Assembly: GCA_050249955.1 (NCBI GenBank)
Contig: JBFWPN010000001.1
Coordinates: 896,716-960,715 of the forward strand
DNA length: 64,000 nucleotides
Source: Vicinamibacterales bacterium
Lineage (GTDB): Bacteria > Acidobacteriota > Vicinamibacteria > Vicinamibacterales > CAVVIG01
Direction: 5' to 3'
The notes below the pieces were generated by a model that saw only the letters and a list, made by a program, of their open reading frames with translations, had not been told where the DNA came from and ran no database searches. Position 1 is the stretch's first letter; each line of letters starts with the position of its first letter. Positions 13,526-58,259 of the stretch are shown here, piece by piece. The translations under genes were made by a program, and so were the position numbers.

Positions 13526-16375
<2,850 letters not shown>

Positions 16376-16580
16376 AGTCCTGCTCCGTTTGCTCCGGGGC
16401 GTCTCCCCGGATCAAGCAATCGAGCACCCCTGCCCCAGGGGTCCGATCGGCTTGTCTGTGATGTCTGAGTGAAGCGTTGGTTTGACTGAAAACGGCTTCG
16501 TACCTTCTGCGGACCGGTGTGGCCGGAAACCTGGGATGTCCCCGTCCGACGCCCGTCCTTCCTCGCGTCAGGCGGGTTTC

Positions 16581-16609
16581 AATATGCGCCCGCGTAACGA
16601 CGATGTCAA
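16581..16609 (-). promoter_or_regulatory. Candidate sigma-70 promoter for nrdJ
   Basis: On the minus strand: TTGACA (16609-16604), a 17-nt spacer, then CATATT (16586-16581). This implies a leader of about 200 nt. Confidence 0.4.
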
Positions 16610-16617
16610 GCCAGGAT

Positions 16618-16662
16618 CTACCACATATTGTGTTTTTGTTTTAGGGCACTCGCATATGTGGA
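16618..16662. promoter_or_regulatory. Pair of AT-rich palindromic boxes, NrdR-operator-like
   Basis: CCACATATTGTGT (16621-16633) and CACTCGCATATGTGG (16647-16661) share inverted CCACATAT/ATATGTGG cores. They lie just upstream of the putative -35 of an RNR gene and resemble the NrdR box consensus acaCwAtATaTwGtgt (about 12/16 matches for the first box). Confidence 0.45.
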
Positions 16663-16670
16663 TGCCTGTG
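16658..16670. repeat. 13-nt exact repeat GTGGATGCCTGTG, copy 1
   Basis: Identical 13-mer also found at 16995-17007. This copy abuts the second NrdR-like box. Confidence 0.85.
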
Positions 16671-16928
16671 GAAAAGACGGTACCTGGCGAAAACGCTAGG
16701 AAAACCTTGGTGGGTGTCCGGACGGGCCGACAAGTCGGCGCTTCAGGCGAAGTCCTGCGGGACCGTGGAAGAGTGGCGTCAGCCCGACCATTGGCGACGA
16801 GCCGGTGTGTTCGTACATGGCGGGCGGGAGGTCGTCTTTCGACGCCTCCCGACGTGCAGTGGCGGGGTGTATGGAAGGTTGTGTGCCCTCCGGCAGAACG
16901 CTGGAGGAACGAGGTTGCCCTCTTATTG

Positions 16929-16944
16929 AGCAACGGGAATGCCA
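16929..16944 (-). promoter_or_regulatory. Sigma-54 (-24/-12) promoter motif
   Basis: The minus strand reads TGGCATtcccgTTGCT, with exact GG-N10-GC spacing. Predicted TSS near 16918, reading toward lower coordinates. Confidence 0.6.
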
Positions 16945-16994
16945 GCAGCGATTCGCACGGAAATGGCCTGAATTTGCGCGGGTGTGTCGGAGCG

Positions 16995-17007
16995 GTGGAT
17001 GCCTGTG
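16995..17007. repeat. 13-nt exact repeat GTGGATGCCTGTG, copy 2
   Basis: Identical to 16658-16670. It overlaps the 11-bp palindrome TGTGTCACACA (17004-17014). Confidence 0.85.
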
Positions 17008-17234
17008 TCACACACCTGAACGGTTGTGCTGCACTGTGGGTAACAAACGCCCCACCGGTGTCGACACGCGGCCAGGGCCAAGGCCGCGTCGGCGCAGCAG
17101 TTCCGCGAGCCATGCGTCAGTGCCCCGATGGAGATCCGTCCAGTACGCTCGAGTCCACGTGCCGACACGGGCTCAGCGGTATGTGGCGGCACACCGACAG
17201 CGTTCCGAATTCAGAACGTGGAACGTCGAACGAC

Positions 17235-17870
17235 TTATCTGCCGAACAGCTGGGCGGCCAGGGCGGCCGCCTTGTCGGCGAGGTTGTTCGCGAAGACGAG
17301 GTTCCGGGCGCGGAGCGCCTCTTCTGCCTGCGTGGCGAAGCGCTTGGCGGTGTCGTACTGGTTCCGGGCGTCGGCGTTCAGCGCCTGGTAGTTCACCCGG
17401 TTCAGGTCGTTCAGCGCCTGACTGATGAGGATGCGTACGCGGCGCTCCACCTCGCCCTCGCGCTGCGTCGGCGTGGTCTGCAGCGTGGTCGGCGGGGTCC
17501 GGGGCTGGTCGTCCGCGGGCTTGGGTGTCTCGCTCACCACGACGTCGGTGCGGGGCGGCTCCGTGCTGCGCGGGGCGTCGGTTCTCGCCGGAGCCGTGGG
17601 CCTGGTCCGCACCGGAGTCTGCGGCTCGTCGGGCAGCGACACGATGGGCGACTGCGGCGGTTCGGCCGCCTCGACGATGCGCGGGGGTGGAGCGGGCATG
17701 TCGAGCGGAGGGAGTTCCGCCACCGTGCTCGCCTGACCGTGCGCACAGGCTCCAGCGACGAGCGGCAGCAGCCACAGGCACGCGTGGCGAGCCGCGCGTC
17801 CTGCCCTGGCTCGCCATCCCTGCGTCTCCGTGCTCCTGTCCCGCTGCATGCGCATGCTCACCGACCTCAC
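17235..17870 (-). CDS. Proline-rich lipoprotein with C-terminal helical domain (hypothetical)
   Basis: Lipobox 'LLPLVAGAC'. Pro/Thr-rich spacer followed by the helical 'RVRILISQALNDLNRVNYQALNADARNQYDTAKRFATQAEEALRARN'. The longest start, GTG at 17870, overlaps the kinase stop (GTGA); alternative ATGs at 17855 and 17849. Confidence 0.65.
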   Translation of the reverse strand: MRSVSMRMQRDRSTETQGWRARAGRAARHACLWLLPLVAGACAHGQASTVAELPPLDMPAPPPRIVEAAEPPQSPIVSLPDEPQTPVRTRPTAPARTDAPRSTEPPRTDVVVSETPKPADDQPRTPPTTLQTTPTQREGEVERRVRILISQALNDLNRVNYQALNADARNQYDTAKRFATQAEEALRARNLVFANNLADKAAALAAQLFGR

Positions 17871-19723
17871 GCCTGCGGCAGCAGGATCGTGAAGGTCGTC
17901 CCCTTCCCTGGAGTTGACTGTACTTCAATCTCGCCGTCGTGCATCTGCACGGTGCGATAGACCATCGACAGGCCGATGCCGCTGCCCCGCTCCTTCGTCG
18001 TGAAGTAGAGGTCGAAGATGCGCTGCAGGTGTTCCGGCTTGATGCCCACGCCCGTGTCGGCCACGGTGATGCGGACACGGCGGCCGCGCACCCCCTCGCA
18101 CCGCAGCCGGAGCGTGCCCCCGCCGGGCATCGCCTGGCAGGCGTTCAGCGCCAGGTTCAGCAGCGCCTGCCTGAGCATCGTGGGATCGCCGTTCACCTCG
18201 GGCTCGCCCTCGGCCTCGGTCACGATCTGGACACCGCGCTGGTTCGCCTCGGTCGAGATGATCGGCACCACCTCGTTGATCAGCTCCGTGAGGTTCACCG
18301 GCCGCAGCTGCAGGTCCTCGGGGCGCGAGAACTTGAGGAAGCCCTGCACCACCTCGTCGAGCCGGCGGATCTCGCGCGCGATGACGTCGACGTGCTGCAA
18401 CGCCTCTGGTGCCGGGGCCCCGGCGGGGCCGGCGTCGAGGTTCAGTGGGCCGCGGGCGGCACCGCGCGCCGAGGCGAGGGCCGACGGCGCCACGTACTGC
18501 CGCAGCAGCTCGAGGTGGATCATCATCGCGTTCAGCGGGTTCTTCACCTCGTGCGCCACGCCGGCCGAGAGCCTGCCCAGGGCGGCGAGCTTGCGCGAGT
18601 ACCGGATGGTGGACTCGACCTGGCTGAGGTACTCCACGTTGCGCGCGATGAGCATCACACCCACAAGGTGTCCGGCCCCGTCGTTCACCGGATGCGCCAG
18701 CAACAGGCGTTCACCCGCCTCGCCCTTGGGCTCGCCGAACACCGCCTGCGTCGGTCCGCGCGACTGGCGCGTGGTGAGGGTGTCCTCCGCCATGCGGCGC
18801 AAGGGATGGTCGGGCGCGATCAGCGCCTCGAGCGCTGCACCCGGTGCGGCAGCCGGCAGCAGCAGGCGCATGGCCGGATTGGCGAACAGCAGCCGGCCGT
18901 CCGGGCCGACGATGGCCACGGCATCCTCGAGGTGTTCGACCGCCGACTCGAGGTGCGCCACCTGTCCCGCCATGTGCGAACGGTCGGCCGCAATCTGGGC
19001 GCTCATGGTGTTGAAGAAGGTGCCCAGTTCCCCGAACTCGTCGGCCTGCGGCAGGTCGAGCTGCACGCCCGACTCACCGCGGCCAAGGCGCGTGAGGCCG
19101 CTCCTGATCACGTGGATGGGGCGGAGGAGCAGCTGCGCCAGTACCGTCGCCCCGAAGACGGCGGCGGCGAGCGCACCAAGGGCCGTCAGTACCGCCGGAC
19201 CGAGCGAGCGGTTCAGGTCGCGGCGGATGAGCAGCGTGGAGACGCCGATGTGAATGGAGCCGATCGGCTGGTCGCCCATGAACAGCGGCTGCGCGTATTC
19301 GAGGTTGCGGCCCTGGTCACGGTAGATGGCCAGCAGCCGGCTGAAGGCGGGCCGGTCGAGCAGTTCCTGCAGGTTGGCCGACCGCGGCAGCGGACGACCC
19401 TCCTGGCTGGTGTCGGCATTGAGCACCGCGATGCCGTCGGGGCTGGTGATGGCGGCCACGGTGACCGCCGGATCGTTCAGGCTGGCTTCGAGAATCGAGC
19501 GGAGCGCGGCGTCGGCGTGCAGCGCCTCGTACGGGTCGCTGACAATCGGCACCGCGCTCGCGCGGTAGGAGATGGCGCTGGCCAGCAGCTCGGCGCGCGC
19601 CCCACTGTCGTCGAGGCCCGCCTTGGCGAGCTGCGACAGGTGCATCAGGCTCAGGGCCACTACCACCACACCCACGATGGTGGTGACGCCGAGCACCTGC
19701 TTGCCCTTGATGCCGAGTCGCAT
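17867..19723 (-). CDS. Sensor histidine kinase (TM-HAMP-PAS-HisKA-HATPase)
   Basis: N-terminal TM 'VTTIVGVVVVALSLM', HAMP 'LLLRPIHVIRSGLTRLGRGE', H-box 'GVAHEVKNPLNAM', and ATPase boxes 'NLALNACQAM', 'DTGVGI', 'GSGIGLSMV'. Confidence 0.9.
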   Translation of the reverse strand: MRLGIKGKQVLGVTTIVGVVVVALSLMHLSQLAKAGLDDSGARAELLASAISYRASAVPIVSDPYEALHADAALRSILEASLNDPAVTVAAITSPDGIAVLNADTSQEGRPLPRSANLQELLDRPAFSRLLAIYRDQGRNLEYAQPLFMGDQPIGSIHIGVSTLLIRRDLNRSLGPAVLTALGALAAAVFGATVLAQLLLRPIHVIRSGLTRLGRGESGVQLDLPQADEFGELGTFFNTMSAQIAADRSHMAGQVAHLESAVEHLEDAVAIVGPDGRLLFANPAMRLLLPAAAPGAALEALIAPDHPLRRMAEDTLTTRQSRGPTQAVFGEPKGEAGERLLLAHPVNDGAGHLVGVMLIARNVEYLSQVESTIRYSRKLAALGRLSAGVAHEVKNPLNAMMIHLELLRQYVAPSALASARGAARGPLNLDAGPAGAPAPEALQHVDVIAREIRRLDEVVQGFLKFSRPEDLQLRPVNLTELINEVVPIISTEANQRGVQIVTEAEGEPEVNGDPTMLRQALLNLALNACQAMPGGGTLRLRCEGVRGRRVRITVADTGVGIKPEHLQRIFDLYFTTKERGSGIGLSMVYRTVQMHDGEIEVQSTPGKGTTFTILLPQA

Positions 19724-19754: not shown

Positions 19755-21170
<1,416 letters not shown>

Positions 21171-21292
21171 TTTTACATTGTGAGTTGCGCCGGGTAGCAG
21201 CGCAAGCTCAGCCCTCATGCTTGTAAGTTGTTGACCAGAAAACCTCTACAATGGTGACGGTCCACGGGGACCGGGCCACAGGAGAGGGTGAC

Positions 21293-38846: not shown

Positions 38847-38862
38847 TGGCAGCGTGGTTGCT
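38847..38862 (+). promoter_or_regulatory. Sigma-54 (-24/-12) promoter motif
   Basis: TGGCAGcgtggTTGCT with exact spacing. Predicted TSS near 38874. GGAG RBS at 38877-38880 and ATG at 38888. Confidence 0.6.
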
Positions 38863-58243: not shown

Positions 58244-58259
58244 TGGCATCGCGCTTGCT
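58244..58259 (+). promoter_or_regulatory. Sigma-54 (-24/-12) promoter motif
   Basis: TGGCATcgcgcTTGCT with exact spacing, in the dprA/TPR divergent intergenic region, about 78 nt upstream of ATG 58337. Confidence 0.55.

Follow-up and report, generated by a model that had tools for sequence, protein, structure and literature searches.

Several of the small RNAs (sRNAs) that bacteria transcribe from sigma-54 promoters, among them Qrr, GlmY, CrcZ, NrsZ, and Pxr, are encoded beside the sigma-54 activator that drives them. A candidate for a further RNA of this kind is described here from an acidobacterium. The stretch analyzed (the window) comprises 64,000 nt of a Vicinamibacterales bacterium (assembly GCA_050249955.1, contig JBFWPN010000001.1, positions 896,716 to 960,715), and the element in question lies on its minus strand, in the 859-bp gap between a sensor operon and the ribonucleotide reductase gene nrdJ. 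The operon encodes an enhancer-binding response regulator of the NtrC family (EBP), a histidine kinase, and a 211-aa protein (LP211). An earlier note, made from the letters of the window without database searches, had proposed that a sigma-54 promoter in this gap drives either an sRNA or a distal leader of nrdJ. We favor the former and consider, with a probability of roughly 0.65, that the gap holds an independent, activator-dependent sRNA gene of Vicinamibacterales, about 100 nt long and served by its own sigma-54 promoter. Judged by sequence comparison, the RNA family is real and apparently undescribed, and its kind would be that of a sigma-54/EBP-dependent sRNA beside its two-component system.

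By gene order, the closest analogues appear to be NrsZ, which lies 3′ of ntrC, and CrcZ, which lies 3′ of cbrB. NrsZ of Pseudomonas aeruginosa is a sigma-54 sRNA encoded just after ntrC, activated by NtrB/C, and found through the search logic TGGCAC-N5-TTGCW (PMC4253122). Its three stem-loops are repeats that processing separates and that act via a loop motif (PMC4253122), whereas the RNA described here has two unlike hairpins, carries its conserved motifs mostly unpaired, and displays no sequence homology to NrsZ. One motif of the present RNA, CCUGCCUGU(G/A)C, is the exact reverse complement of the functional NrsZ loop GUACAGGCAGGC (PMC4253122), probably by coincidence. The Pseudomonas genes for CrcZ/CrcY are always found just 3′ of the gene for their own sigma-54 activator, cbrB, and possess their own -24/-12 promoter; CrcZ arises, in addition, from the processing of transcripts that read through from cbrB (PMC5113210, PMC6296734). 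CrcZ is a protein sponge of ~400 nt with A-rich Hfq-binding repeats (PMC5113210, PMC6296734), and none of these features is seen here.

With respect to an accessory lipoprotein, the GlmY module of Enterobacteriaceae would be the closest analogue. There, a kinase, a lipoprotein, and a sigma-54 activator, QseE(GlrK)-QseG-QseF(GlrR), are encoded beside the sRNA gene, and the activator binds the GlmY promoter (PMC6075780, PMC8745638, PMC12691602). The differences are that glmY lies upstream of its operon whereas the present RNA lies downstream, that the Rfam GlmY/GlmZ models give no match, that the kinase shows only a weak Cache match (PF17203) in contrast to the four-helix bundle sensor of QseE, and that the EBP reaches 343 bits against a GlrR cut-off of 763 and is therefore not an equivalog. 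An identification of LP211 as QseG was supported neither by sequence (PDB profile search) nor by fold (Foldseek). The Qrr RNAs of Vibrio, which depend on LuxO, resemble the present RNA in being sigma-54/EBP-dependent, ~100 nt long, and built of several stem-loops; they act by base-pairing, end in a canonical terminator, and are Hfq-dependent (PMC3730234). A canonical terminator is not seen here, no Rfam Qrr match was obtained, and the EBP scores 383 bits against a LuxO cut-off of 800.

The sigma-54 promoter and the conserved RNA

The motif TGGCATTCCCGTTGCT at 16944-16929 (-) places its GG element at 16943/16942 and its GC element at 16931/16930, 10 nt apart. Sigma-54 transcription is expected to start about 12 nt past the GC element. 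Considered alone, the motif is not significant, as matches with one mismatch number three in the 64 kb versus 1.22 expected and 17 of 100 shuffles equal that count; its support is comparative. Two further sigma-54-like motifs lie elsewhere, TGGCAGCGTGGTTGCT at 38847-38862 (+) and TGGCATCGCGCTTGCT at 58244-58259 (+). Both appear to sit in gaps 5′ of plus-strand open reading frames (ORFs) with signal-peptide-like starts, and neither has the 27-bp box found at 17043-17017 and discussed below.

In alignments of related loci, TGGCAY-N5-TTGCT is invariant and is followed by a freely varying spacer of 11-12 nt and then by the conserved RNA. When 59 distinct upstream sequences are anchored on TGGCA, the TGGCA and TTGCT elements carry ~2 bits per position, the positions upstream of TGGCA, in the N5 spacer, and between -12 and +1 carry ~0-0.5 bits, and from +2 on conservation is high again. 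A distance of 25-27 nt separates the first letter of the motif from the RNA start in every one of the 21 RNA-bearing sequences of the first set; of the 45 metagenome loci whose upstream sequence can be read, 44 have the motif at this distance as well. The single exception (L039:1982-3940) has a DDE transposase (PF01609) directly at the RNA 5′ end, in place of the sigma-54 promoter and the sensor operon, and looks like an insertion sequence that decapitated the RNA gene. Among loci that lack the RNA, the motif is absent in all seven, three of which leave no room for the RNA. These comparisons strongly back a genuine sigma-54-type promoter with a transcription start site (TSS) near 16918, as the earlier note had predicted from the full -24/-12 motif, whose letters proved invariant across the 59 distinct sequences. 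A relative that is 99.7% identical over 6.35 kb of aligned sequence (L050) differs at 20 positions, nine of which fall within the 87 nt between the upstream box and +1 (17004-16918); these nine affect only promoter spacer positions and leave TGGCA, TTGC, the box, and the RNA body unchanged. On the RNA strand, the clustered differences are A/C-to-G changes or a G insertion, save for a G-to-A change at +1 (16918).

The extent of the RNA was delimited by comparing the gap with related loci by blastn, which returned two conserved blocks. The first (query 289-423, or 16946-16812) runs from the sigma-54 motif to just past the second hairpin, the second (16675-16376) holds the nrdJ promoter and leader, and the stretch between them has no match in related loci. 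A covariance model, R1, whose bit scores are a safer measure than its rough E-values, detects a single copy in the window (104.5 bits), one copy each in 20 of 27 genome loci retrieved with an LP211 profile (66-114 bits), and no further copies in ~350 kb. One pattern scan with the conserved letters retrieved 46 metagenome stretches, every one of which scores 81-112 bits with R1 and displays the same gene context wherever the contig is long enough. The RNA is thereby present in at least 67 loci, with 59 distinct sequences. Rfam 15 gave no match over the whole window at gathering thresholds (including Qrr, GlmY/GlmZ, and Acido-type motifs), and at E up to 10 over 16300-17300 it returned only a chance snoRNA fragment at 16386-16415. 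Promoter and RNA are present together or absent together across loci, and insertions never interrupt the unit, sitting in front of the box in L009 (2.8 kb) and behind the tail in L024 and L070; the one exception is the transposase at +1 in L039. As far as these comparisons reach, promoter, RNA, and, in the subclade of the window, the box behave as one unit.

The consensus of the RNA comprises CAACCUCGUUC, a helix H1, a C-rich linker with AACCUUCC ... CCUGCCUGUGCAC, a helix H2 (GGGAGG ... CCUCCC), and CACCUGCC (Table 1). Three stretches are conserved while unpaired, namely CAACCUCGU at the 5′ end and the two linker motifs. The 5′ tail (consensus cAaCcUCGU-UC) remains unpaired in minimum free energy (MFE) folds; its UCGU is conserved at ≥90% across the 59 distinct sequences, and C and UCGU are invariant in the first 18. 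The linker region shows a plus-strand GC skew of +0.17 to +0.26, corresponding to a C-rich minus strand. In H1, 97.5% of the alignment cells are paired and both-sided changes occur at 7 of the 10 pairs. The outer GGGAGG/CCUCC stem of H2 is near-invariant, with its pairs 92-100% paired, and all 57 testable distinct RNAs fold H2 into 7-10 bp despite 39 different inner-stem/loop sequences. H2 is followed by a conserved tail of 7-8 nt without a U-tract and probably marks the 3′ end. The motif CCUGCCUGU(G/A)C stands once before H2 (16865-16852), and many sequences have a second copy after it (for example in the tails of L048, L051, L064, L030, and L025).

Pairing was quantified on a combined alignment of the 67 sequences fitted to the model. 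Over the 59 distinct sequences, 95.1% of cells pair, a share that drops to 52-61% if the 3′ partners are shifted by 1-3 columns, both-sided changes occur at nine pairs and in 52 cells, and none of 500 shuffles reaches these values. Evidence free of this fitting agrees with the structure: RNAalifold on a plain MAFFT alignment gives H1 and the base of H2, and most single-sequence MFE folds contain both hairpins.

The reading of the hairpins in the earlier note can be judged against this structure. Hairpin 1 (16907-16887) lies inside the conserved H1 (16908-16886), and hairpin 2 (16850-16826, with a GAAA loop) is exactly as claimed and kept through compensatory changes. Hairpin 3 (16739-16726) and the three U-runs downstream are present as well; hairpin 3 and the first two U-runs, however, fall in the unconserved spacer, and the third U-run is part of the conserved block around the nrdJ promoter, not of the RNA. 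A terminator formed by hairpin 3 and the U-runs was accordingly rejected, given that this spacer has no blast conservation and measures ~15-390 nt. The proposed RNA of 90-250 nt survives as a small structured RNA whose conserved part, ~100 nt (16918-16819), falls at the lower end of that range. The Rfam scan and the comparative alignment suggested there have both been run, the former with no relevant match to any known family, the latter revealing conservation of region and structure and presence of the motif in the RNA-bearing orthologous loci.

The simplest deflationary account is a chance motif with chance hairpins in a nonfunctional spacer, or a DNA-level element without an RNA product. 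It would accommodate the lack of enrichment of the motif, the unexceptional single-sequence fold of 266 nt (z = -1.48), and the missing Rfam match. It is effectively refuted by the recurrence in 67 loci (59 distinct), the fixed promoter distance, the compensatory changes in both helices, and the sharp conservation borders at TGGCA and after the tail.

The alignment also bears on the parallel with Pxr drawn in the earlier note. In Myxococcus xanthus and other Cystobacterineae, Pxr is an RNA of ~100 nt with a predicted sigma-54 promoter, an upstream enhancer region, and several stem-loops, encoded directly 3′ of the genes for the kinase and NtrC-like regulator that control it, in the order pxrK - pxrR - pxr between nla19 and Mxan_1079/1080 (PMC5684412, PMC5568312). 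The present RNA shares the size, the type of promoter, the neighbors, and the possession of several stem-loops, and might on these grounds be taken for a divergent Pxr family member, a reading that we regard as extremely improbable. Hallmarks of Pxr are conserved SL1 and SL2, an 8-bp segment in SL3, and processing into a long and a short form. The published ends of Pxr (5′ AAGCGAGGCUGAAGGCGGUUCCCCCC..., 3′ ...GUGUCGGGCCGCCUUCUUUU), taken from published primers (PMC5568312 Table S1, PMC5684412), have no counterpart in the 59-sequence alignment, the comparison being one by these ends and not a full Pxr alignment. Here the RNA follows regulator, kinase, and LP211, in this order, and precedes nrdJ in place of Mxan_1079/1080, and there are two conserved hairpins versus three in Pxr, with no U-tailed terminator stem SL3. 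The locus belongs to another phylum and is not myxobacterial, because the named LP211 homologues and the synteny of the 27 loci are those of Vicinamibacterales. What remains of the parallel is an analogy of layout, without sequence similarity.

Table 1. Features of the locus in window coordinates.
Feature	Position	Strand	Basis or remark
Candidate upstream activating sequence TTACCCACAGTGCAGCACAACCGTTCA	17017-17043	(-)	Fixed-distance conservation
Sigma-54 (-24/-12) promoter TGGCATtcccgTTGCT	16929-16944	(-)	One mismatch to consensus TGGCAC-N5-TTGCW
Conserved core of the small RNA, ~100 nt	16819-16918	(-)	Predicted TSS G16918; modelled stretch to 16812
Single-stranded 5′ tail GCAACCUCGU	16909-16918	(-)	Most conserved unpaired stretch
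Helix H1, 10 bp, loop 3-4 nt	16886-16908	(-)	RNAalifold on plain MAFFT alignment
C-rich, G-poor single-stranded linker, 35 nt, motifs AACCUUCC, CCUGCCUGUGCAC (CCCCGCCACUGCAC in the window)	16851-16885	(-)	Consensus line
Helix H2 GGGAGGCGUC-GAAA-GACG(A)CCUCCC	16826-16850	(-)	Fold and pairing counts
Conserved 3′ tail, consensus CACCUGCC (GCCCGCC in the window)	16819-16825	(-)	Conservation stops after the tail
Two palindromes 5′ of the nrdJ promoter	~16662-16647 and ~16633-16618	(-)	
nrdJ sigma-70-type promoter TTGACA-17-CATATT	16609-16581	(-)	Conserved, downstream of the RNA
nrdJ 5′ leader, ~200 nt	16580-16376	(-)	Conserved
nrdJ, class II B12-dependent ribonucleotide reductase	13526-16375	(-)	
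LP211, 211-aa probable lipoprotein/periplasmic protein, last gene of the sensor operon	17235-17870	(-)	
Sensor histidine kinase	17867-19723	(-)	Weak Cache match (PF17203), HAMP, PAS, HisKA, HATPase_c; synteny
NtrC-family sigma-54 enhancer-binding response regulator (EBP), presumed activator	19755-21218	(-)	Pfam Response_reg, Sigma54_activat, AAA_lid_14, HTH_8

Upstream box and gene neighborhood

Activating sequences of sigma-54 promoters are expected ~80-150 bp upstream. The 27-bp box TTACCCACnGTGCAGCnCAACnGTTCA at 17043-17017 starts ~125 nt 5′ of the RNA start and ~100 bp 5′ of the -24 element. With at most six mismatches (≤6), it recurs at -125 to -127 in 13 loci of the subclade of the window, against a background of random 204-nt segments that mostly give 11-13 mismatches. 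There is one site per locus, and no second site was found in ~1.1 Mb (both strands counted). Dyad symmetry was sought in the box and was not convincing, so that only a box conserved at a fixed distance can be claimed; from this, we infer a candidate enhancer site that the EBP may bind.

The EBP contains GAFTGA at residue 247 and a Walker A motif at residue 200, is 82-96% identical across the 27 genome loci, and reaches none of the NCBIfam equivalog cut-offs. All 27 keep the order EBP - kinase - LP211 - nrdJ, and Pfam matches together with this synteny bear out the placement of the RNA beside an EBP / kinase / lipoprotein operon that had been read from the letters. LP211 belongs to a family of >800 proteins without a Pfam or NCBIfam match, and its named homologues come from metagenome-assembled genomes (MAGs) of Vicinamibacterales (Acidobacteriota). 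A hydrophobic helix is followed by Cys42, which is invariant (Cys-x-His). The AlphaFold model displays a signal/transmembrane helix, a Pro-rich disordered linker of ~90 aa, and a C-terminal three-helix bundle (pLDDT 96-98). Foldseek against the PDB returned nothing better than E 0.3, the best matches being generic three-helix bundles and no QseG among them, and the LP211 profile found nothing relevant among PDB sequences. Three MAG records titled 'Bifidobacterium sp.', 'Bifidobacterium breve', and 'Betaproteobacteria bacterium' (L006, L007, L018) have a GC-rich locus of Vicinamibacterales type, with EBP and NrdJ 85-93% identical; these bins are probably mislabelled or contaminated.

The gap had been described as less GC-rich than its flanks and free of credible ORFs. 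Its GC content is only modestly under that of the flanks (0.565-0.66 vs 0.63-0.76), and mechanical ORFs do span the gap, such as one of 181 aa at 16568-17113 (-). The ORFs overlapping the RNA region have no Pfam match, and no reading frame is kept, because homologous RNAs differ by indels of 1-2 nt; a small conserved ORF is ruled out by the lack of family matches and these frame-breaking indels. In the variable spacers near the RNA unit (L013, L018, L020, L024, L025, L026), short tandem repeats are common, for example five copies of GCTGATA, TAGAACC-type repeats, and CCAACT/CACCAA, and these differ between genomes.

Proposed mode of action

In the mechanism that we propose, the kinase, possibly together with LP211, would phosphorylate the adjacent NtrC-type activator. 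The phosphorylated activator would then bind the box ~100 bp upstream and open the sigma-54 promoter, such that the RNA is made only on signal. The -24/-12 promoter at 16944-16929 (-) would set the start at ~16918, and H2 would end or protect the transcript. The RNA would act in trans. Its near-invariant unpaired C/U-rich stretches look like anti-Shine-Dalgarno seeds, and these (CCUC, CCUUCC) would most likely pair with purine-rich ribosome-binding regions and repress translation. The best candidate for a seed is the 5′ tail GCAACCUCGU. A pairing of the RNA with the nrdJ leader or promoter was considered and rejected: the match seen, by eye only, is CACAGGCA / UGCCUGUG, which maps 5′ of the -35 element of the sigma-70 promoter and lacks complementarity in the window.

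The main alternative to this mode of action would be an independent sigma-54 RNA that, like CrcZ or GlmY, binds or sequesters a protein instead of pairing with mRNAs, the GGGAGG/CCUCC stem base and the twice-occurring CCUGCC serving as protein sites. The outer stem of H2 is invariant although pairing alone would suffice, CCUGCC(UGUrC) stands 5′ of H2 and has a second copy 3′ of it in many sequences, and both CrcZ and GlmY, as sigma-54 sRNAs beside their two-component genes, work as decoys (PMC5113210, PMC7073468). However, no known protein-binding motif is present, the loops lack GGA, there are no A-rich repeats, and the motif has only two copies. Furthermore, conservation among the unpaired stretches peaks at the 5′ end, as is typical of base-pairing seeds, and the locus offers no candidate partner protein. 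We consider a protein-binding role unlikely and retain base-pairing in trans as the preferred mode of action.

Relation to nrdJ and significance

The alternative offered in the earlier note is that the sigma-54 promoter is a distal, activator-dependent second promoter of nrdJ. The ~100 nt would then be the 5′ end of a leader of ~540 nt (in the window) that stabilizes nrdJ mRNA or lets nrdJ escape NrdR control. The distribution of features around nrdJ disfavors this account, which we hold to be improbable. Because TTGACA-17-CATATT lies downstream of the RNA, nrdJ has its own promoter, preceded by two palindromes that resemble NrdR boxes. This promoter and the ~200-nt leader are kept in every locus, including the seven without the RNA. 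Between the modelled RNA and the first nrdJ box lie ~15 to 390 nt of unconserved spacer, depending on the locus. On a 3.1-kb soil metagenome contig (L040:1260-1510), a box-like sequence, the promoter, and the RNA are inverted between the LP211 gene and nrdJ, such that the RNA points away from nrdJ and converges on the LP211 gene, its tail ending 3 nt from the LP211 stop codon. A nrdJ leader would also leave the near-invariant unpaired motifs unexplained. In view of the downstream nrdJ promoter, the RNA-less loci, and the inversion, the RNA does not fit a cis-acting nrdJ leader or riboswitch. The leader that directly precedes nrdJ contains a covarying hairpin of its own, with a near-invariant loop UCCCAGCUU that differs in 1 of 25 aligned sequences; Rfam has no family that fits it, and it may represent a cis-regulatory leader not yet described.

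A number of observations weigh against an independent sRNA under local control, and some of them are what the nrdJ leader account would predict. Of the 62 loci that allow the RNA and nrdJ to be placed, 61 have the RNA codirectional with and directly 5′ of nrdJ, a canonical intrinsic terminator between H2 and the nrdJ promoter was found in only 5 of 62 loci (57 lack one), and some modelled RNAs end only ~15-30 nt before the first nrdJ promoter box. Some read-through into nrdJ is possible. Common descent explains the shared orientation, and the missing terminators say little, because canonical terminators are not enriched in this genome (6 found versus 5.9 expected) and none is detectably used. 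The inversion was seen on that one 3.1-kb metagenome contig, and the relatedness of the sequences and the model-fitted alignment flatter the covariation counts. The box is clear only in the subclade of the window, distant loci displaying a looser TACCCAC ... TTCAC pattern. Seven related loci have the same two-component operon without promoter or RNA; wherever the contig includes their EBP, it is 85-89% identical. Other targets of the activator must therefore exist, and control of this promoter by the adjacent two-component system is putative. The transcript itself, its TSS, and its 3′ end are predictions from sequence. As to targets, none was identified by a crude duplex scan of the window or by eye at the nrdJ leader; the scan, in which RNAduplex paired the whole molecule with 42 crude gene starts of the window, produced meaningless full-length duplexes and was abandoned.

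A tentative and rather doubtful extension would join the two outputs in one device, in which a trans-acting sRNA of ~100 nt is combined with partial read-through past a weak stop at H2 that crosses the NrdR boxes and reaches nrdJ. Such a device would account for the position of the module before nrdJ in almost every genome. If true, it would couple the supply of DNA precursors to a two-component system that senses the envelope or nutrients and give NrdR-independent expression of the B12-dependent ribonucleotide reductase.

On the preferred reading, that of an independent sRNA gene, the finding would add to a phylum in which the literature yielded neither a sigma-54 sRNA nor an experimentally characterized regulatory sRNA. 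Vicinamibacterales are among the most abundant soil bacteria. A new Rfam family built from the RNA would improve the annotation of soil metagenomes, and the 59 natural sequence variants are available to guide mutagenesis. The recurring design of a sigma-54 activator beside the sRNA that it drives would be extended to a distant phylum and, because it recurs at such a distance, would appear to be convergent and general.

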